Positions 2,917 to 59,916 of a stretch of 64,000 nt of DNA are shown here, piece after piece; the stretch's first letter is position 1, and each line of letters begins with the position of its first letter. The notes beneath the pieces are model-generated. The model had not been told where the DNA came from. It searched no databases and worked only from the letters and a program-made list of their open reading frames with translations. The translations under genes and the position numbers were made by a program. The DNA is from Patescibacteria group bacterium (GTDB taxonomy: Bacteria; Patescibacteriota; Minisyncoccia; Phycocordibacterales; JAKAEA01): the NCBI GenBank assembly GCA_040387855.1, contig JAZKCY010000001.1, forward strand, positions 104,396 through 168,395. The letters run 5' to 3'.

Positions 2917-3783
2917 GTGAATACATTAAAAGAATACTCAAGAATAATTTTTGTAAGCCTTTTATTACTTTCAAATATTTTTATTTGGTATGTCTATCTG
3001 TGTGAAAGAAATTCTGGAGAGGTGACAGTATCGTTTTTAAATATTGGACAGGGTGATGCAATCTACATCCAGTCGCCAACAGGTAATCAAATTATGATTG
3101 ATGGTGGACCACCTCATGCAGTGCTTGGAGAATTAAGAAAAGTAATTCCATTTTATGATCGGTCACTCGATATGCTTTTAGTAACCAATCCTGACACCGA
3201 TCACTATGCAGGATTCATCGATGTACTAAAAGGATATGATGTGAAATATGTTGCAGAGCCAGGAACATATTCACCCTCACAAACATATAAAGTTTTTAAA
3301 GAAGAAGTCGCACATGAACATGCTTCAACCACACTCCTGAAAAGAAATATGATTATCCATTTGGGAGGAGGAGCAGATCTTCACATTTTGTATCCAGATA
3401 AAGATGTCTCAAAAGAGACAACTAATGATGGGTCAGTCCTTGCAAAATTAGTGTATAAAAATAATGAAATTATGTTCACTGGTGATGCTCCAAAAAGTTC
3501 TGAAGAATATTTAGTAAGTTTAAATCCACATGATTTAAAAAGCGATGTGCTTAAAGTCGGTCACCATGGTTCTAAGACATCGTCATCAGAGAAATTTGTA
3601 GAGGCTATTAATCCTAGGTTCGCAATAATTTCAGCAGGAGAGAAAAATAGGTACGGACATCCGCATTCTGAGACAACTGATGTTTTTAAAAAACTCGGTG
3701 TGCCTGTTTTCGGTACTTATGAGCATGGAATGATTACCTTAAAACTTGATGGAATAAACGTTGCGACATCATTTGAGAAATAA
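2917..3783 (+). CDS. ComEC/Rec2-type metallo-beta-lactamase domain protein (the C-terminal ComEC module as a separate gene)
   Basis: N-terminal TM helix, then LNIGQGDAIYIQSP and HHGS motifs typical of the ComEC MBL domain. Confidence 0.7.
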   Translation: MNTLKEYSRIIFVSLLLLSNIFIWYVYLCERNSGEVTVSFLNIGQGDAIYIQSPTGNQIMIDGGPPHAVLGELRKVIPFYDRSLDMLLVTNPDTDHYAGFIDVLKGYDVKYVAEPGTYSPSQTYKVFKEEVAHEHASTTLLKRNMIIHLGGGADLHILYPDKDVSKETTNDGSVLAKLVYKNNEIMFTGDAPKSSEEYLVSLNPHDLKSDVLKVGHHGSKTSSSEKFVEAINPRFAIISAGEKNRYGHPHSETTDVFKKLGVPVFGTYEHGMITLKLDGINVATSFEK

Positions 3784-9607: not shown

Positions 9608-12184
9608 TTGAGAATATCTTTTATGAAAGCATTATTATCCCGCATAGGAATTAGCCTTCTCATATGCGCTTTTGTTGTTGGTCCACTTAATGTTGGGCAA
9701 GCACAAACTGTTGATGTACCAGCTCCCGTAGCTAGCTTTGTCACAATTCCAAGTGCTGTGCTTAGACTTGAATACAATAGTGCACAAATGGATCCTTCAT
9801 TAGTTGCAACTTTTAAAATTATTGTTAACTCAGGATCTCAAGAAAGAAAAGTATATGAGACTGGTTTTGCAGATCAGCTTATATTTATGAAGACAGGTAA
9901 TTGGGTAAATGCAAATTCATATAGTCGAACGGTAACTCCTCCAGCAAATGTTACAAAGACTCAAGACCAGTACGGAAGAACTATCTTTACTATTCCAGCA
10001 AATCAACAAGCAGAGTTTACACAAGTTACAAAATATAATCCGAAGCAGCTTTTTGCGGGAAGATACTATGCGAAGATTGCTAATGTGTATGCGCCAGCAA
10101 GTACTTCAGGTACCGATGACTATTTTTCTGCACCTGTAAATAAATCAAATGAAGTAACTATTGTTGGAGAAGTTTCTCCATACATTGATTTTGTTCATGT
10201 TGGTAACAATGCTGTGTCTATCAACGGTCAGCGTTTTGCTCGATTCGAAAATCAAGTATTAATTGATGGAGTAGTGCTCTACGGAAAACGACCTTCATTA
10301 GGAAATAAAGGAGCAGCTGTTTCATTTAATTATGTAGGAGCAAAGCTTACGCCTGGACGTCATTCTATTGCAATCAATCATCCAGTGACCGGAAGAAGTA
10401 ATACTATGTGGTTTGAAATTCCTGGAACAGTACCTACTAATCCTACAATACCGGGATGTCCTACAGGAGCGATGTATAATTCTCTTACAGGTGCTCCTTG
10501 CGTGCCTTCTACAACAGGTGTAATTACAGTAAGTCTTGATGCAGGTACTCCTTCAATAACAACTCACACAGTACATTCAGTATATGGCGCACAAGGTGTA
10601 GAAATGCAGAAGTTTGCAGCACGAGCTGTAAATGCTGATACAAAATTTATTTCTACAGGTGTTAGCTTCACGGGAGAGATTCCAACTGCTGTGTATCTCT
10701 ATGATGGAAATACTCTTATTGATTCACGATCAGGAGCAGCAAACGTTACATTTAATTTCCCTACATCAAACATTGTAATTGCAAAAGATACAACTCGAGT
10801 ATTCACTATTAAAGCAGATTTTGCTCCTACTACAGCAAATGGAGCTACATCAAAAAGTGTAGTTACGTCAGCACAATATTTAAGTGATACAATCATTACG
10901 ATCCCTACTGCTGGAGTGACTGGAAATGTACAAAACTTTACAAGTTCAACAACTGGATCACAGGCAAATCTTACCTTTGTATCTGGAACTGCTTCAACAT
11001 TAACAAGTATATCAACAGGTGAGACAAGTGCAGTTACAGGTACAATTGCATTTAAAGTAAAGCCTGTAGGAGGATCAGCTGCAATTCCTTCAACATCTGA
11101 TTTTGAATTAAAACTTAATTCTTCAGCATATTCTCCAATCACAATTACAAACAAGACCGTCACTATGACGAGTGCAACTGGAGCTGCAACGGGAAGTATT
11201 CTCGCTGAAGGAAGTGAATACACAATTCAGGTAACTGGTGTAATTCAACCTTTTGCAATCCCTGTGACTGGTATCTCAACCGGATATTTTTCTCTCACAA
11301 GTACAAAGTTTACTGTTGGTGGAACTGTGGTAACTCAAACATCAGGACTCGAAAACTTTAAGACAAATAGTGTAACTGTTGTAAAATCAGGACCAATGCC
11401 AGAATCTTCTGTCACTGTTTTTTCACCAAATGGAGGTGAGAGTATAAATGGCAATACATCATTCGCAATCAAGTTTAAACCTATACCCGGAGTTCAACAC
11501 TTTGTAAATCTTATTGATGAATCAAATTCACCAAGTAATAAGGAGTATGATTTAAGATACTCTAATGGAAATGCTGTCATGGGGGAAACAACAGAACAGC
11601 AAACCTTTGTTGCTATTGTACCTCCTGGTTATAATATTACATCAGGAAATAAATTTAAGATTGAAGTTTGCGCAAATTTCAAATGTGATAAAAGTAATGA
11701 GTATTTTACTTTTACAACATCAAATGTAACTCCAGCACCTACAACTCCTACTATCACAGGTTACAGTTTGATTAATGCTGATACAGATCAAGTAATCGCT
11801 GGGTATGAAACTATCAGCAATGGGGTCACACTAAATCTTGCAACACTTCCTACAAAAAATCTCAACATCCGAGCAAATGTTGCCGGAGGAACTGCAAGTG
11901 TTAAATTCACCACATCAGGTGCACAGTCATCAACCTATACAGAGAGTGGAGCGCCATTTGCTCTAAAAGGCGATACCAATGGTAATTATCTCCCTTGGAC
12001 ACCTATTGCTGGCACATACACTGTTATAGCTACTCCTTACAGCAAAATAAGCGCTCAGGGCACAGCTGGAACCGCGGTAGCACTTACATTTAAGGTTGTA
12101 ACTTCAACTACTACTGCTGCTGACTATAGTTTCAGCGAACAAGTGGCAAATATTGTGAATGCTCTCAATAATTTGTTTAGATAA
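9608..12184 (+). CDS. large secreted/surface protein (signal peptide; Thr/Ser/Val/Gly-rich beta-type repeats; Cys pairs)
   Basis: 858 aa with an N-terminal signal peptide (MKALLSRIGISLLICAFVVGPLNVGQA). Composition resembles an adhesin or S-layer protein. Confidence 0.5.
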   Translation: MRISFMKALLSRIGISLLICAFVVGPLNVGQAQTVDVPAPVASFVTIPSAVLRLEYNSAQMDPSLVATFKIIVNSGSQERKVYETGFADQLIFMKTGNWVNANSYSRTVTPPANVTKTQDQYGRTIFTIPANQQAEFTQVTKYNPKQLFAGRYYAKIANVYAPASTSGTDDYFSAPVNKSNEVTIVGEVSPYIDFVHVGNNAVSINGQRFARFENQVLIDGVVLYGKRPSLGNKGAAVSFNYVGAKLTPGRHSIAINHPVTGRSNTMWFEIPGTVPTNPTIPGCPTGAMYNSLTGAPCVPSTTGVITVSLDAGTPSITTHTVHSVYGAQGVEMQKFAARAVNADTKFISTGVSFTGEIPTAVYLYDGNTLIDSRSGAANVTFNFPTSNIVIAKDTTRVFTIKADFAPTTANGATSKSVVTSAQYLSDTIITIPTAGVTGNVQNFTSSTTGSQANLTFVSGTASTLTSISTGETSAVTGTIAFKVKPVGGSAAIPSTSDFELKLNSSAYSPITITNKTVTMTSATGAATGSILAEGSEYTIQVTGVIQPFAIPVTGISTGYFSLTSTKFTVGGTVVTQTSGLENFKTNSVTVVKSGPMPESSVTVFSPNGGESINGNTSFAIKFKPIPGVQHFVNLIDESNSPSNKEYDLRYSNGNAVMGETTEQQTFVAIVPPGYNITSGNKFKIEVCANFKCDKSNEYFTFTTSNVTPAPTTPTITGYSLINADTDQVIAGYETISNGVTLNLATLPTKNLNIRANVAGGTASVKFTTSGAQSSTYTESGAPFALKGDTNGNYLPWTPIAGTYTVIATPYSKISAQGTAGTAVALTFKVVTSTTTAADYSFSEQVANIVNALNNLFR

Positions 12185-29019: not shown

Positions 29020-31797
29020 ATGGAAAATCCAAATCTACTTCAACCAGAACAAAAATTTTCTTCACCTGAAGAAGAGTTAGCATATTTAAGAAATCAGGTA
29101 GCTGTGCGAGAGAGGGAACTCATGGCACGAGGTGCAGAAGTTACACGTGATGAAGTTATTTCAGATAAAGTAAAAGATTACAGCTATGCTCCCACACAAG
29201 CTGTGTTACACGAGACCCACAAAGCACCCGATACTTATATAGAAGACTTAGCCCTCAATCTCGCTCCTGAGACTCATGATTATAAAATTATAGAACTTGT
29301 AAAAATCCTTAAAGAAAAGGGGATTAAAAATGCTATGGATGTGGTGGCTGAAATGAATGATCCGCACGTTGAGGATGATTTTCATAGATTCTTAGTACAG
29401 TATGTTAAAAAAGGTTTAGTAATAGATGGATTGAAGCCGAAATCTGAATTGTTTAGAGAGCTTAATATGACACTCTATGAAGTGTCTCTTCCTGACTCAA
29501 AAGATCAGGAAAATAAAAGCATTAAAGAGCTTGTTTCATCGATGGAGCAGTTTTACTCAGGTATGATGGCTATTGAAGACCGTGATGATTCAGGCAGATA
29601 TTTTTCTATTGAAATTGCCAACCCAAATCATAGTGAAGAATTTATTGTATATGTATCGGTGCCTGATACAAAAAAGAATTTGTTTGAAAAGCAAATCCTT
29701 TCACTGTTTCCATTGGCAAAGATCAAAGAAATTCCCGATGACTACAATATCTTTAATGAAGCAGGAGCAACGGTAGGATCAGTTGCAGAATTTGATTCGC
29801 ATGCTGCATTACCTATCAAAACATACGAAACATTTGATCATGATCCAATGAACGTAGTGTTGAATACGTTTTCTAAAATTAAAAAAGACGGCGAAGGTGC
29901 CGCAATTCAGTTTATAATTCGACCGCCTGTTGCAGATGAATATGTAAAGCAATACAAAATGACCCTTGAGCAAGTACAAAAGGGGACAAAGCTTAAGGAT
30001 GCACTTCCAAAATCTATAGCTAAAGAAGTGTTTGGCAGTTTTAAAGATGTGTTCTTCGGAAGTAAAAAAGATGAAGACAAAGATACATCAAAAACTGTTG
30101 ATGAAAATGCAGTAGAGCAATTAAAGAATAAAATTTCTAGTCCAATTGCTGAAGTGAATATTCGTATTATTGCATCAGCACCTACTATTTCTGACGCAGA
30201 TAAAATAATTTCGGACATTGAATCAAGTTTCCGTCAGGTGGAAAATACGCAAGGGAATAAACTTATCTTTAAGCGACAAAGTGGTAAAAAACTTATTGCA
30301 ATGGCAAAAGATTTTTCATACCGAGCTTTTACTTCAGACCATTTACTACCTATAAACTTTAAGGAACTTACAACACTTTTTCACTTTCCAGGATCAACTA
30401 TCAAATCATCTCCACAACTTAAGCAAAGTATGGCAGCATCAGCTCCTGCACCTATGGATATGCCTCAAGATGGAACATTACTTGGTGTAAATAGATTCCG
30501 AAATGTTGAGACTAAAGTATTCATGACTAAAGAAGATCGATTGCGACATATGTATGTGATCGGACAAACTGGAACTGGTAAATCAACTATCCTCAAGAAT
30601 ATGATTGCTCAAGATATTCTCCAGGGAGAGGGAGTATGTATGATTGACCCTCACGGCGTAGATATTTTGGATATTCTTTCTATTATTCCTCCAGAACGAT
30701 ATGAAGATATTATTTACTTTGATCCAAGTGATACAAAGCGACCAATGTCTCTCAACATGCTTGAGTATGATAGACGTTATCCAGAACAGAAGACATTCGT
30801 GGTCAACGAAATGATGTCTATTTTTAACAAGCTTTTCGATATGAAAACATCGGGAGGTCCAATGTTTGAACAGTACTTCCGAAATGCAACAATGCTTGTG
30901 ATTGAAGACCCAGATACTGGTTCTACTCTTTTGGACGTATCTCGTGTACTTGCCGATAAAGCATATCGACAGCTGAAAATTGCGCGATGTAAAAATCCTA
31001 TTGTTGTGCAATTCTGGAAAGAGATTGCCGAGAAGGCTGGAGGAGAAGCATCCCTTGGTAATATTGTGCCGTATATTACCTCTAAATTCGACGTATTCCT
31101 CTCAAACGACATCATGAGACCAATTGTGTCTCAGGAACAATCAAGCTTCAATTTTAGAGAGCTTATGGATACTAAGAAGATTCTCTTAGTGAACCTTGCC
31201 AAGGGACGACTTGGAGATATTAATGCCAATCTCATTGGTCTTATTATTGTGGGGAAAATCTTGATGGCCGCACTTTCACGAGCTGATTCACTTCATCTAA
31301 ATCCAGCTCCGTTTTATCTTTATATCGACGAGTTCCAAAACGTAACTACCGATTCTATTTCAACTATTCTTTCTGAAGCTCGAAAGTACAAGCTTTCACT
31401 CAATGTTGCTCACCAATTTATCGCCCAACTAGATGAAGGTATTCGAGACTCCGTGTTTGGAAACGTAGGAAATATGGCGGTATATCGAGTGGGTGCAGAT
31501 GATGCAGAATTTCTTGAAAAACAATTTGCTCCTGAATTTACTGCAAAAGATATTATGAATATTGAGAACTACCATGCATATCTCAAGATACTTGTTCGCG
31601 GAAAGCCGGTAAAACCTTTTGATATTAAGGCACAAGCATCTCCACAAGGTAAGAAAGATCATCTTGAAAAACTCAAAGAACTTTCAGGTTTGAAATATGG
31701 CCGTGATCGAGCAGATGTAGAGGCTGACATTATGCTTAAGTATAAAAAGCCAGATCCTGTGCCTCCAGTTGCACCAGCAGCAGCAACAAAGTTATAA
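29020..31797 (+). CDS. VirB4/TraG-superfamily (FtsK/HerA-like, AAA_10/DUF87) type-IV-secretion-type ATPase with a large soluble N-terminal domain and no TM segments
   Basis: 925 aa with Walker A VIGQTGTGKST, Walker B-like LYIDEFQNV, and the ARKYKLSLNVAHQ (RK...[AS]xQ) motif typical of VirB4/TraC/T4CP ATPases. Confidence 0.55.
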   Translation: MENPNLLQPEQKFSSPEEELAYLRNQVAVRERELMARGAEVTRDEVISDKVKDYSYAPTQAVLHETHKAPDTYIEDLALNLAPETHDYKIIELVKILKEKGIKNAMDVVAEMNDPHVEDDFHRFLVQYVKKGLVIDGLKPKSELFRELNMTLYEVSLPDSKDQENKSIKELVSSMEQFYSGMMAIEDRDDSGRYFSIEIANPNHSEEFIVYVSVPDTKKNLFEKQILSLFPLAKIKEIPDDYNIFNEAGATVGSVAEFDSHAALPIKTYETFDHDPMNVVLNTFSKIKKDGEGAAIQFIIRPPVADEYVKQYKMTLEQVQKGTKLKDALPKSIAKEVFGSFKDVFFGSKKDEDKDTSKTVDENAVEQLKNKISSPIAEVNIRIIASAPTISDADKIISDIESSFRQVENTQGNKLIFKRQSGKKLIAMAKDFSYRAFTSDHLLPINFKELTTLFHFPGSTIKSSPQLKQSMAASAPAPMDMPQDGTLLGVNRFRNVETKVFMTKEDRLRHMYVIGQTGTGKSTILKNMIAQDILQGEGVCMIDPHGVDILDILSIIPPERYEDIIYFDPSDTKRPMSLNMLEYDRRYPEQKTFVVNEMMSIFNKLFDMKTSGGPMFEQYFRNATMLVIEDPDTGSTLLDVSRVLADKAYRQLKIARCKNPIVVQFWKEIAEKAGGEASLGNIVPYITSKFDVFLSNDIMRPIVSQEQSSFNFRELMDTKKILLVNLAKGRLGDINANLIGLIIVGKILMAALSRADSLHLNPAPFYLYIDEFQNVTTDSISTILSEARKYKLSLNVAHQFIAQLDEGIRDSVFGNVGNMAVYRVGADDAEFLEKQFAPEFTAKDIMNIENYHAYLKILVRGKPVKPFDIKAQASPQGKKDHLEKLKELSGLKYGRDRADVEADIMLKYKKPDPVPPVAPAAATKL

Positions 31798-31804
31798 TCG
31801 GTAC

Positions 31805-32410
31805 ATGTCACATCCAAAATACGAACGAACACTTGTGGTTATTAAACCAGATGGTATCCAGCGATCATTGATAGGGGAGATTATTAAGCGATACGAACAA
31901 ATTGGACTTAAATTAGTAGCCATGAAAATGATGATGGCTACGCCTGAGCATATTGAAGCTCATTATACCCTTGATCCAGAATGGCGACGTATTACTGGAG
32001 AGAAAACAATTAAAGGCTATAAAGATAAAGGTCTCACTCCACCAACTGAAGATCCATTGGAAGTGACCGGTGCACTTTTGGGAAAGCTTAAGACTTATAT
32101 GACAGCAGGGCCACTTGTAGCCATGGTGTGGCAAGGCGCTCATGCGGTAAAAATAGTGAGAAAGATAACCGGTGGGACTGAACCACTAACCTCAGATGTA
32201 GGAACAATTCGAGGGGATTATGTGTTGGATTCATATCAAATGACTGATGCTGATGGCCGATCTATTAGAAATTTAATTCATGCATCAGGAACTCCAAAAG
32301 AAGCAGAAGAAGAAATCAAACACTGGTTTAATCCTGATGAAATCATGGATTATAAGCTTGTACAGGAACAAATTTTGTACGACATAAAGATGGGTGGAGT
32401 TTTAGAATAG
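31805..32410 (+). CDS. ndk: nucleoside diphosphate kinase (long form with insertion)
   Basis: TLVVIKPDG and the NxxHxSD region. Start placed at the internal ATG. Confidence 0.8.
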   Translation: MSHPKYERTLVVIKPDGIQRSLIGEIIKRYEQIGLKLVAMKMMMATPEHIEAHYTLDPEWRRITGEKTIKGYKDKGLTPPTEDPLEVTGALLGKLKTYMTAGPLVAMVWQGAHAVKIVRKITGGTEPLTSDVGTIRGDYVLDSYQMTDADGRSIRNLIHASGTPKEAEEEIKHWFNPDEIMDYKLVQEQILYDIKMGGVLE

Positions 32411-32469
32411 AAACATATTTAATTCTTGTTGGTAAGTATTCAAGAAATTTTAAAAACTTATAATGAGTA

Positions 32470-32665
32470 CAGGTCGCTCGGGATATTCATTCTTATTAAG
32501 TATTCTTTAGGGAGCCTAACATCGCTGCAATCTGGTGCGCCCTCGTCGCAAGACGTTGGTACCGAAGAATGTTAGCTGCAGGCACCCACTTAGCTTACCG
32601 CTAGGGTGAATACTCCCGGCGGCCTACTAAACATCTCATCCTTAGCTTTGCTCAGGATGGGATTT
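32470..32665 (+). ncRNA. candidate structured small RNA of unknown family (GC-rich island in AT-rich spacer)
   Basis: A TATAAT box at 32457-32462 lies about 7 nt upstream. A long closing helix pairs AGGTCGCTCGGGATATTC (32471-32488) with GAATACTCCCGGCGGCCT (32608-32625). A central CGTC-GCAA-GACG GNRA hairpin sits at 32546-32557. A 3' hairpin CATCC...GGATG is followed by TTTTT at about 32660. Confidence 0.35.
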
Positions 32666-32688
32666 TTAGTTTCTGGTATAATAATCCT

Positions 32689-33102
32689 ATGCAGCGATTG
32701 AATACTCTCATATTTCTGTTGATAGTCGTAGCAATTATTGCAACGCTGCATTTGGCTGGATTTGAGTTTCAGTTTTACTGGAGATTATATTGGTATGATC
32801 GTATTGTGCATACACTTTCAGGCTTTTGGGTAACATTTGTAACTCTTCAGTTTACTAAAAAGTATACCCAAGCTGATACCTTTAAGATTGCGAGTGTAGG
32901 ATTGGCTGCTATTCTTATTATTGGTATTTTGTGGGAGTTTTTTGAATATGGAATTGGAGCAACCTCATTGAGCGATCTTCATTTTGTAAGTAATAGTATT
33001 GGAGATCTTATTTGTGATATTGCTGGTGGAATTATTGCCATTGTAATGAGTATTATTATTTTTCGCAGAGAACAATTATGGAACAACAAAAAGCTTTCTT
33101 AA
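32689..33102 (+). CDS. VanZ-like family membrane protein
   Basis: 137 aa, 4 TM, VanZ-like motif pattern. Confidence 0.5.
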   Translation: MQRLNTLIFLLIVVAIIATLHLAGFEFQFYWRLYWYDRIVHTLSGFWVTFVTLQFTKKYTQADTFKIASVGLAAILIIGILWEFFEYGIGATSLSDLHFVSNSIGDLICDIAGGIIAIVMSIIIFRREQLWNNKKLS

Positions 33103-34469
33103 CGTTTGCCAGTGGAGTAGGCACCGTTACAGGAGCTAATTTTTTATTAGAGATAGAGACATCCACAGGAATAAAACGAATTGCTGTTGATTGTGGTCTT
33201 GAGCAGGGGAGTGAATTGGCAGATGCTCGAAATCGTGATCCATTTGCCTACGATCCAGCAACAGTAGATATCCTACTTATTACGCATGGCCATATTGATC
33301 ATATTGGAAGAATTCCAAAGTTTGTTAAAGATGGCTTTAAAGGAGTTATCTATTCTACTCCTGCAACAAAAGATATTACATCAGTGATGCTTCCTGATGC
33401 GATGCGCCTCATGATGGAAAGTTCTCAGCGACATGGCGTTCTTCCGATGTATGAGCAAAAAGATTTAGAACAAGCAATGCGTCTTTGGAAAACAATTCCA
33501 TATTACACAAACTTTGCACTTACTCCTGAAATAAATGTGTATCTTAAAGATTCAGGCCATATATTGGGTGCTGCGATGTTTGAGATTTCGCGAAAGGGAA
33601 GCGCTAAAAAAATAGTATTTACGGGAGATTTAGGAAATTCACCATCGCTCTTTTTGCGAGATACTGATCCAGTAACAGATGCTACGTATATGGTCATGGA
33701 ATCTGTATATGGAGATCGCAATCATGAACCTAAAGAAGAGCGTAGAAATAAGTTTGCTGATATTATCCGAGATGTCATCCACCGCAAGCGCACTCTTATT
33801 ATTCCAGCATTTTCGCTTGAGCGAACCCAAGATATTCTCTATGAACTTAATCACCTTATAGAACGCGAAAATATTGGAGATATAAAAGTATTTATTGATT
33901 CACCATTGGCTGCAAAGATTACGGGGATTTATAAGCTCTATAAAGATGATTTCAAAGATTCTGCTAAAAAGTATATTGCAGAAGGAGATGATTTGTTTGA
34001 TTTCCCAAAACTTAAATTCACCTTACAAAAGCATGAATCAGAACGGTTAGATCATATTGCTGGGCCAAAGATTATTATTGCTGGTTCTGGAATGAGTAAT
34101 GGAGGTCGTGTAGTGGGCCATGAACTTCACTATTTACCTGAGCATGACACAACACTGCTTTTGGTAGGGTATCAATCTGCAGGTACTTTGGGCCGACAAA
34201 TTCATGATGGGGCGCGGCAAGTAACCATTGATGAACAGACTATTCGCATTAATGCTGAAGTAAAAAGCATTATGGGCTATTCATCTCATAAAGATTCTGA
34301 TCACTTAATAGAGTTTGTAGAAAAAACTGCTGGGACAGTAAAGCAAGTATTTGTTGCTATGGGTGAACCAAAGTCAGCGCTGTTTTTAGTGCAGCGGTTA
34401 AGAGATTACTTAAATGTAAATGCAAAGTTCCCACGACAAGGGGAGAAGGTGGAACTTGATCTAAATTAA
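33078..34469 (+). CDS. MBL-fold beta-CASP ribonuclease (RNase J / CPSF-like)
   Basis: ITHGHIDHIG in the MBL domain, followed by beta-CASP and RMMBL regions. 463 aa. Confidence 0.7.
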   Translation: MEQQKAFLTFASGVGTVTGANFLLEIETSTGIKRIAVDCGLEQGSELADARNRDPFAYDPATVDILLITHGHIDHIGRIPKFVKDGFKGVIYSTPATKDITSVMLPDAMRLMMESSQRHGVLPMYEQKDLEQAMRLWKTIPYYTNFALTPEINVYLKDSGHILGAAMFEISRKGSAKKIVFTGDLGNSPSLFLRDTDPVTDATYMVMESVYGDRNHEPKEERRNKFADIIRDVIHRKRTLIIPAFSLERTQDILYELNHLIERENIGDIKVFIDSPLAAKITGIYKLYKDDFKDSAKKYIAEGDDLFDFPKLKFTLQKHESERLDHIAGPKIIIAGSGMSNGGRVVGHELHYLPEHDTTLLLVGYQSAGTLGRQIHDGARQVTIDEQTIRINAEVKSIMGYSSHKDSDHLIEFVEKTAGTVKQVFVAMGEPKSALFLVQRLRDYLNVNAKFPRQGEKVELDLN

Positions 34470-56770: not shown

Positions 56771-56817
56771 AGGTGGCTTGCCACGAGTGATCCTGCGTTC
56801 TTGCGCGGCGAATCGAG

Positions 56818-57226
56818 TGGAGATGGCGGGAATCGAACCCGCGTGCAAAAGAAGTTCTTAAATGGGTCTACAATGTATAGAGAATCTTAACCACCCGAAG
56901 GTGGGTTTAAACGCAGTGGGTAAAAAGATAATCAAAATTCCCACGTTGCCGAGTCCCTTTATTTCGATCAATCATCGGAACGAGTGAAAGATCTATCTCA
57001 ACGATATACCACCAACACTTAGTAAGTTGAGAAAAAACTAAGGTGGCGTCGTCTGGCTACCGTTTAAAGGGGTTTACGCGAGAGCGAAAGCGAAGTTACT
57101 TGCGTAAGGCGAAGCAACTGCTGTTCGTGCTGATTTTGCACTTGAAGTTTCCGTCAGATTTAAGAGTTAACGGTGCTCTACATTGCGCAGATAAGAAACA
57201 AACTCTTGTCTAGGCCGATCATCCCC
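56818..57226 (-). ncRNA. ssrA: tmRNA (transfer-messenger RNA)
   Basis: The 5' GGGGATG pairs with the 3' CATCTCC-A, including the G3:U70 alanine identity pair. The T-arm reads GCGGGTTCGATTCCCGC. There is an internal in-frame tag ORF ...AVASPYASNFAFALA* ending in TAA. smpB lies immediately upstream. Confidence 0.85.
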
Positions 57227-59835: not shown

Positions 59836-59842
59836 AAAAATG

Positions 59843-59916
59843 TCCACCCTCTTGGATTCGAACCAAGGACCACCGAGGTATAAGCTCGGTGCTCTAACCA
59901 ACTGAGCTAAGGGTGG
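59843..59916 (-). tRNA. tRNA with anticodon UAU (Ile-type, AUA-reading), 74 nt, CCA not encoded
   Basis: Manual fold: acceptor CCACCCT/AGGGTGG, D-arm GCTC-AGTTGGTTA-GAGC, anticodon arm CCGAG-CTTATAC-CTCGG, variable loop TGGTC, T-arm CTTGG-TTCGAAT-CCAAG, discriminator A. Confidence 0.75.

Follow-up and report, generated by a model that had tools for sequence, protein, structure and literature searches.

Between ndk and the next gene in a Paceibacteria-like genome of the Patescibacteria (CPR) lies a segment (about 32457-32670; all positions refer to the window, that is, the whole analysed stretch of 64,000 nucleotides) with a GC content of 0.43-0.53, compared with 0.25-0.38 in the AT-rich flanks. 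An earlier note, made from the letters alone, had recognized this difference and had proposed a discrete, strongly structured small RNA for which no class could be named. This raises the question of what the segment encodes. 6S RNA is a global regulator of transcription that is directed at RNA polymerase and occurs in nearly all bacteria. Here we present the fold, the relatives and the family assignment of the segment, and give a probability of about 0.9 to the reading that it is the 6S RNA (ssrS) gene of Paceibacteria-like Patescibacteria, in a compact and divergent form.

Upstream of the RNA, on the same (+) strand, ndk (31805-32410; Pfam NDK, E = 1e-37) is directly preceded by the gene for a VirD4/TraG/HerA-like coupling ATPase of 925 aa (29020-31797), a synteny that is kept in many related genomes. 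The downstream gene (32689-33102) encodes a small multi-pass membrane protein of 137 aa and is variable or absent in related loci. The earlier designation of this protein as VanZ-like found no backing in Pfam, where only a sub-threshold match to DUF2238 (23.4 vs 26.4 bits) and a weak match to 7TMR-DISM_7TM were obtained. A beta-CASP/RMMBL RNase J-like gene (33078-34469) overlaps the membrane-protein ORF by 25 nt; it is often syntenic with the 6S gene. In B. subtilis, RNase J1 is the key enzyme of 6S processing and decay (PMC10578484).

The TATAAT box of the membrane-protein gene, previously placed at 32666, is located at 32677-32682 (+), outside the RNA and 6 nt before the ATG at 32689. The same arrangement is present in ndk, with TATAAT at 31793-31798, 6 nt before the ATG at 31805, and neither gene has a visible Shine-Dalgarno sequence. 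From these two features the sequence suggests that both genes may be transcribed as leaderless mRNAs. A TATAAT-to-ATG spacing like that of the downstream gene recurs 3' of the RNA in at least 15 related loci. The window also contains a tmRNA (56815-57226, - strand, 78 bits, tag peptide AKSARTAVASPYASNFAFALA) and a tRNA-Ile with the anticodon UAU (59842-59916, - strand). At the segment itself no match to tRNA, tmRNA, RNase P or SRP RNA was obtained, as the earlier note had supposed.

The + strand of 32457-32670 folds with -84.6 kcal/mol, compared with -57.3 +/- 4.1 kcal/mol for 200 dinucleotide-preserving shuffles, none of which folds as well (z = -6.63); the - strand of the segment folds less well (z = -4.27). 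The whole structured unit, the core of the RNA, covers 32470-32626 (+) with a length of 157 nt. It is a rod in which a closing stem of some 20 bp leads to a large open bubble with a hairpin on its 3' side and further to an apical arm that starts from an invariant GGGA...ACCCAC helix. The closing stem, which corresponds to the 'downstream duplex' of 6S RNAs, is formed by 32471-32489 as the 5' strand and 32607-32625 as the 3' strand, both being supported by the fold and by covariation. An extended helix with G-U pairs between the 5' end and a distal segment had been described before with one bulge; the helix and several G-U pairs are present, but there are two bulged bases (U32478 and C32613). 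The minimum-free-energy fold lengthens the closing helix to 32493/32603. Compensatory changes occur in 17 of the 17 pairs of model helices 1 and 2, which represent the closing stem.

The 5' central bubble (32490-32509) is open, AU-rich and poorly conserved, with a length of 17-26 nt across the family, and is aligned with the unpaired 5' bubble of the Rfam 6S family RF00013. Its start, UUCU (32490-32493), has AGGG (32603-32606) as an alternative partner, a pairing that competes with formation of the hairpin at 32589-32605. On the apical side of the bubble follows helix P2, with the 5' strand GGGAGCCU at 32510-32517 and the 3' strand AGGCACCC, which together with the unpaired A32588 occupies 32580-32588 and forms the ACCCAC signature. 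According to the column counts, all 59 members share GGG (32510-32512), CCC (32585-32587) and A32588, with C-C/U-U in the next positions, and further pairs of the helix covary (GC/UA/AU). A32513 is nearly invariant (57 of 59) and stands opposite A32584 in an A-A mismatch. The RF00013 consensus also contains the GGGAgccc of the P2 5' strand, and gggcaCCCACCUgg at the position of the 3' strand.

A conserved asymmetric internal loop, with AACAUC (32518-32523; family consensus N-A-Y-A-U-N) on the 5' side and UGC (32577-32579) on the 3' side, connects P2 with an apical stem that is itself interrupted by internal loops (32524-32576). The CGUC-GCAA-GACG hairpin of the GNRA type, already recognized in the earlier note, is found here at 32544-32555, with the GCAA tetraloop at 32548-32551. 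Relatives carry CUUG, UUCG or GNRA loops at the apex, so the apical loop sequence is not conserved. The segment between the P2 strands (32518-32579 in the window) ranges from 29 to 71 nt across the family, with a median of 33 nt. The 3' side of the central bubble holds hairpin P3 (CUUAGC-UUACC-GCUAGG, 32589-32605), which appears in the centroid fold and in most relatives and whose pairs covary, e.g., as AU/GC (31/20) and GC/AU/UA/CG.

Both ends of the RNA are marked by transcription signals. A -10 box, TATAAT, is located at 32459-32464 (+), 6 nt before A32471 and thus just upstream of the 5' end, where it had been noticed before; the predicted transcription start, at about 32470-32471, is the first base of the closing stem. 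A strict -10 hexamer ending 4-10 nt 5' of the stem occurs in 46 of 61 members, compared with 1.9% of background windows, and TTGAC/TTGC-like -35 elements are visible in many family members. The terminal hairpin with TTTTT reported earlier is present as an intrinsic terminator (32626-32667, +), composed of a long hairpin (32626-32662) and the T run (32663-32667). A hairpin of -8 kcal/mol or lower, together with a run of at least four T residues within 75 nt, was found in 45 of 60 related loci. A simple promoter/terminator scanner flagged neither the promoter nor the terminator of the RNA, because it accepts only promoters with a -35 box and terminators with a short, perfect stem; the comparison of loci confirmed both. 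With this in silico support, the RNA would have a sigma-70-type promoter of its own, and its transcription would run from about 32470-32471 to about 32667.

Conservation and covariation in relatives, which the earlier note had proposed as a check, are both strong. Among 80 loci around ndk homologues, taken from one-genome-per-species contigs, iterated nhmmer searches detected the element in 60, always on the ndk strand and with one copy per locus, usually starting 5-200 nt past the ndk stop codon. The 20 remaining loci have no such RNA; there ndk possesses its own terminator and other neighbours, which points to other CPR lineages. A covariance model (R1), built from 33 ndk-linked CPR sequences only, matches 32470-32626 with 77.3 bits (E = 1.5e-16) as its sole match in the 64-kb window, and recovers the same 60 loci plus one weak extra match. 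This weak member (L079, 3221-3334, Buchananbacteria, 21.9 bits) has GGU...ACC in place of GGG...CCC, a compensatory change in the most conserved helix. In two of the loci that lack the RNA (L073, about 3150-3330, and L065, about 3190-3250; Magasanikbacteria and Kaiserbacteria) other promoter-to-terminator units follow ndk; these intergenic units might represent small RNAs of other kinds.

Single-sequence folds of about 59 members show a common layout in most cases. A long closing stem is followed by an AU-rich single-stranded 5' segment, by the GGGA-NNN/NNN-ACCC helix with the conserved asymmetric internal loop and an apical hairpin of very variable length, and, on the 3' side, by a single A that never varies, a small hairpin with the consensus CCUAG-loop-CUAGG, the second closing-stem strand and the terminator. 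The core of the family is 110-168 nt long, with a median of 127 nt. Standard pairs are formed by 89.7% of the alignment cells, compared with 35-47% in controls with the partners shifted by 1-3 columns; having been fitted to R1, the alignment favours the structure, but the margin over these controls is still large. Compensatory changes were observed in 33 of 36 pairs, and the covariation score of 0.545 (about 0.1 in controls) was not reached by any of 500 shuffles. A separate alignment of metagenome sequences gave similar values, with 89.5% of the cells paired and a covariation score of 0.582.

Comparison with Rfam delivered no match to RF00013 at the gathering threshold in the whole 64-kb window, where just the tmRNA and the tRNA were reported, and a search of 32350-32750 (401 nt) yielded nothing for RF00013 at E <= 10 and only chance matches to snoRNAs. 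For 32466-32630 alone, RF00013 scores 13.8 bits (E = 0.57), which is below the gathering score of 46.4, yet it is the best E-value among 4227 Rfam families. Of the classes that the earlier note had named for an Rfam search, SRP RNA, RNase P RNA and riboswitches gave no match, and 6S RNA only this sub-threshold one; since RF00013 fails at its threshold here, no obvious class signature was seen at first. RF00013 model positions 33-154 align to 32484-32612. Within this alignment, 32484-32493 and 32603-32612 correspond to the bubble-proximal closing stem and 32494-32509 to the 5' bubble, and GGGAGCC and GGCACCCAC are aligned with their consensus counterparts, GGGAGCC and CACCCAC being in register. 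The RF00013 consensus (...auaGGGagccc...gggcaCCCACCUgg..CaGG) prints GGG...CCCACCU, the conserved letters that flank the bubble apically, in upper case, and the family consensus AGGGAgyc...GgcACCCACCUrG..CUAGG has its signature at equal structural positions. In the related locus L006 Rfam reported mostly terminator look-alikes and a 6S match of 9.5 bits, which vanished once the region was trimmed and was treated as noise.

Canonical 6S RNAs possess an outer closing stem, a 5' central bulge of large size and an apical stem containing internal loops, and B. subtilis 6S-1 has a hairpin that faces the bulge and exists already in the free RNA (PMC8414754, PMC8876501). The same structure is found in the folds of the window segment and of most of about 59 relatives and is supported by covariation, and the conserved nucleotides of the apical bubble flank are present. 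Homology to accepted 6S RNAs was established with metagenome contigs, which were scanned with a 19-base pattern of the most conserved family positions (AGGGA-N5-A-N-AT ... TG-N-G-N3-ACCCACCT), yielding at least 120 matching stretches and at least 80 loci. Among the matches listed, R1 matches 74 of 80 metagenome loci over its full length, with scores that are inflated by the pre-selection of these loci with the pattern. When 40 of the metagenome loci were searched with Rfam, 20 were called RF00013 6S RNA with 50-99 bits (threshold 46.4): 17 of the first 20 non-ndk loci with 64-99 bits and three of a further 20 with 50-63 bits. At each of these 20 loci R1 covers an inner part of the Rfam match and stops 14-28 nt short of both its ends.

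T-box leaders near loci of the first group indicate Firmicutes-like genomes. One locus, L113, scores about 62 bits with both R1 and RF00013, and the protease encoded next to it is closest, among named relatives, to proteins of Peregrinibacteria, a CPR lineage. Homology of the RNA family to 6S RNA is concluded not from the R1 scores on the metagenome loci but from a motif arrangement that was derived from CPR sequences only and lands in register inside bona fide 6S genes in half of the loci tested, and from the existence of intermediates recognized by both models. R1 had no meaningful match to E. coli ssrS with filters off, so that direct homology to gamma-proteobacterial 6S RNA cannot be shown. 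A search of a literature library for 6S RNA in CPR/Patescibacteria found no paper there that links the two.

Several other identities were considered and dropped. SRP RNA (4.5S/ffs) was rejected because no SRP model matched at any threshold and because apical loop and stem length vary, unlike the conserved domain IV of SRP RNA, which has a GNAR tetraloop with symmetric and asymmetric loops at its apex; a T-box on the opposite strand, suggested by a GGGUG similarity, was ruled out by orientation and context. For Y RNA, retron RNA and riboswitches the partner genes or a fixed context are lacking, and a riboswitch or attenuating leader is further opposed by differing downstream genes, the separate -10 box and the lack of an Rfam riboswitch match. 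That the segment is GC-rich and hairpin-forming by chance, or codes for a short protein, has a negligible probability: two mechanical ORFs of 49 aa (32426-32575, +) and 53 aa (32590-32751, -) do overlap the segment, but the length differences of the apical stem are not multiples of three, the base pairs covary extensively and none of the 200 shuffles folds as well. The gene neighbourhood bears on the reading of the segment as a cis-acting element, either the 3' UTR of ndk or a leader, attenuator or riboswitch of the membrane-protein/beta-CASP RNase operon. Paceibacteria commonly have the order ndk - RNA - (small membrane protein) - beta-CASP, the beta-CASP gene is directly next in some loci, and the terminator ends only 22 nt before the next start codon. 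Neighbouring genes vary by lineage, however, and include ndk, a site-2 protease, thrC (threonine synthase) or a nearby RNase P RNA; recurrent in the metagenome loci are, among others, the site-2 protease and threonine synthase together with an aldose epimerase. Among loci that were not pre-selected for ndk, ndk is upstream in only 17 of the 63 with enough upstream sequence and a beta-CASP gene is downstream in 17 of 44, and in other lineages the neighbours are unrelated. Occurrence in such differing neighbourhoods argues that the RNA is neither the 3' UTR of ndk nor the leader of the next gene, and the ndk 3' UTR and beta-CASP leader were dropped when the metagenome set revealed them. The -10 box at a fixed distance from the RNA would make it independent of ndk transcription, and the downstream gene has its TATAAT past the terminator and before the ATG. 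Ligand-binding aptamers look different from a roughly 20-bp closing stem with a long unconserved bubble, and no overlap of closing stem and terminator that could act as antiterminator was seen in the fold. A cis-acting element is thus very improbable; the proposal of a discrete structured small RNA is supported by the conserved promoter and terminator, the strong covariation and the varied neighbourhoods. In one metagenome contig (L144) the 6S-like RNA (10530-10651) lies about 90 nt upstream of an RNase P RNA (10743-11087) on the same strand, with a tmRNA 3 kb further on, which looks like a cluster of housekeeping RNA genes.

The graded series of loci recognized by both models (L113, L161 and L146) speaks against a separate small-RNA family that has become 6S-like by convergence and has another partner, e.g., core polymerase as in the case of Ms1, or another protein. 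So do the position of the signature in the same structural register as in the RF00013 consensus and the 20 of 40 tested matches of pattern and R1 that are Rfam 6S RNAs. Such a family would account for the sub-threshold RF00013 score, the short closing stem, and the lineage-specific conserved N-A-Y-A-U-N/UGC loop and the A-A mismatch, which are not described for model 6S RNAs, and Ms1 demonstrates that 6S-like shapes can have other targets (PMC9130861); on balance we regard convergence as improbable. Somewhat less doubtful, but still unlikely, is a naturally minimised 6S RNA of Paceibacteria and their relatives whose half-length stem, often very short apical arm and lineage-specific invariant A-A mismatch and loop go along with polymerase contacts or a release mechanism that differ from the E. 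coli and B. subtilis models, and whose turnover may be coupled to the beta-CASP nuclease.

For the preferred reading as a compact 6S RNA, a mode of action can be proposed from established 6S biology (PMC8876501, PMC9670815). The bubble and its two flanking helices would mimic an open promoter, with the closing stem in the role of the downstream duplex and the GGGA/ACCC helix and apical arm in the role of the upstream duplex. We infer that the RNA binds to the housekeeping RNA polymerase holoenzyme, where it would occupy the active-site cleft and hold the enzyme back. When nucleotides are plentiful, the polymerase would use the 5' strand of the bubble and the adjacent strand of the closing stem as template for a short product RNA, which, by the alignment to RF00013, would start near 32494-32498. 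Synthesis of this product would open the upper part of the closing stem, and the freed 3' strand could then pair again with the bubble hairpin or the bubble strand, by which the enzyme would be released.

Complementarity of the first 5'-bubble bases to the hairpin's 3' arm is more frequent than expected by chance, with shuffled and non-cognate sequences as the reference (mean z -1.44), the alternative pairing having p < 0.05 in 20 of 59 members, and cognate alternative pairings average -3.1 kcal/mol compared with -1.65 kcal/mol for non-cognate ones; since the members are phylogenetically related, these statistics are indicative only. This complementarity possibly represents a release switch of the 6S type. 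Four relatives that form one clade (L058, L032, L028 and L060, at about 3120-3320 each) have GCAACUU in the 5' bubble (CAACUU in L060), which complements AAGUUGC, a stretch spanning loop and 3' arm of the bubble hairpin; this pairing and the hairpin preclude each other. In these few sequences the 7-nt complement resembles the 'central bubble collapse helix' of B. subtilis 6S-1. A short 6S form is functionally plausible, since B. subtilis 6S-1 truncated to its bubble with two short arms still goes through the 6S cycle in vitro (PMC8876501).

The segment holds a real small-RNA gene whose product belongs to the known 6S family as a compact, divergent form, one that standard annotation misses in this lineage. 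Because the Rfam model misses this form, the gene is likely to be unannotated wherever genomes were annotated with RF00013; a covariance model, an alignment and a sequence signature are now available for the annotation of 6S RNA in CPR. The results indicate that these ultra-small bacteria with reduced genomes keep a 6S gene, and with it probably this layer of RNA polymerase control. The advance is at the level of annotation and concerns a known family, with no new kind of RNA and no new mechanism.

Canonical 6S RNAs are about 180 nt long. By comparison, the closing stem of the RNA described here has about half the usual length, and the core comprises 157 nt (family median 127 nt). The outer 14-28 nt of each closing-stem strand of RF00013-type 6S RNAs are missing; this outer part is absent since transcription is predicted to begin with the first base that pairs. 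The CPR family often has a very short apical arm. The near-invariant A-A mismatch and the N-A-Y-A-U-N/UGC loop are shared by the CPR family and the pattern-selected metagenome set.

For other 6S RNAs, product RNAs with GG at positions 4/5 or 5/6 are reported, as is an A adjacent to the start site (PMC8414754); such features are not evident in the window sequence, which has no template CC in the expected place. E. coli ssrS has the same overall rod with a central bubble, and its 3' bubble CACCUUG...CAAGG is comparable to CACUUAG...CUAGG in the window. In both RNAs the top of the closing stem may compete with the 3' bubble hairpin, which in E. coli drives release according to Panchapakesan and Unrau 2012, as reported in PMC8876501. 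In contrast to the RNA described here, free E. coli 6S RNA has an open 3' bubble, in which a 9-bp hairpin arises only once the product RNA has been made; moreover, ssrS is co-transcribed with fau/ygfA, whereas the present gene is predicted to be a stand-alone unit. Ms1 of Actinobacteria is a structured small RNA of 6S-like shape that associates with RNA polymerase (PMC9130861), but it is larger, binds core polymerase instead of the holoenzyme and has no sequence signature in common with the RNA; nothing here points to Ms1.

The closest likeness in form is to the Firmicutes-type 6S RNAs (B. subtilis 6S-1/bsrA and those of lactic acid bacteria), which share the closing stem, the open 5' bubble, the apical arm with internal loops and the small preformed hairpin of the 3' bubble (PMC8876501, PMC8414754). 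Both have the GGGAgcc...ggcACCCACCUgg signature flanking the bubble and are bounded by a terminator, whereas the gene neighbourhoods differ, with ndk here and rarA/uspA for the 6S RNA of lactic acid bacteria. The CPR form is a natural minimal 6S RNA, in agreement with the in vitro sufficiency of a bubble plus two short arms (PMC8876501).
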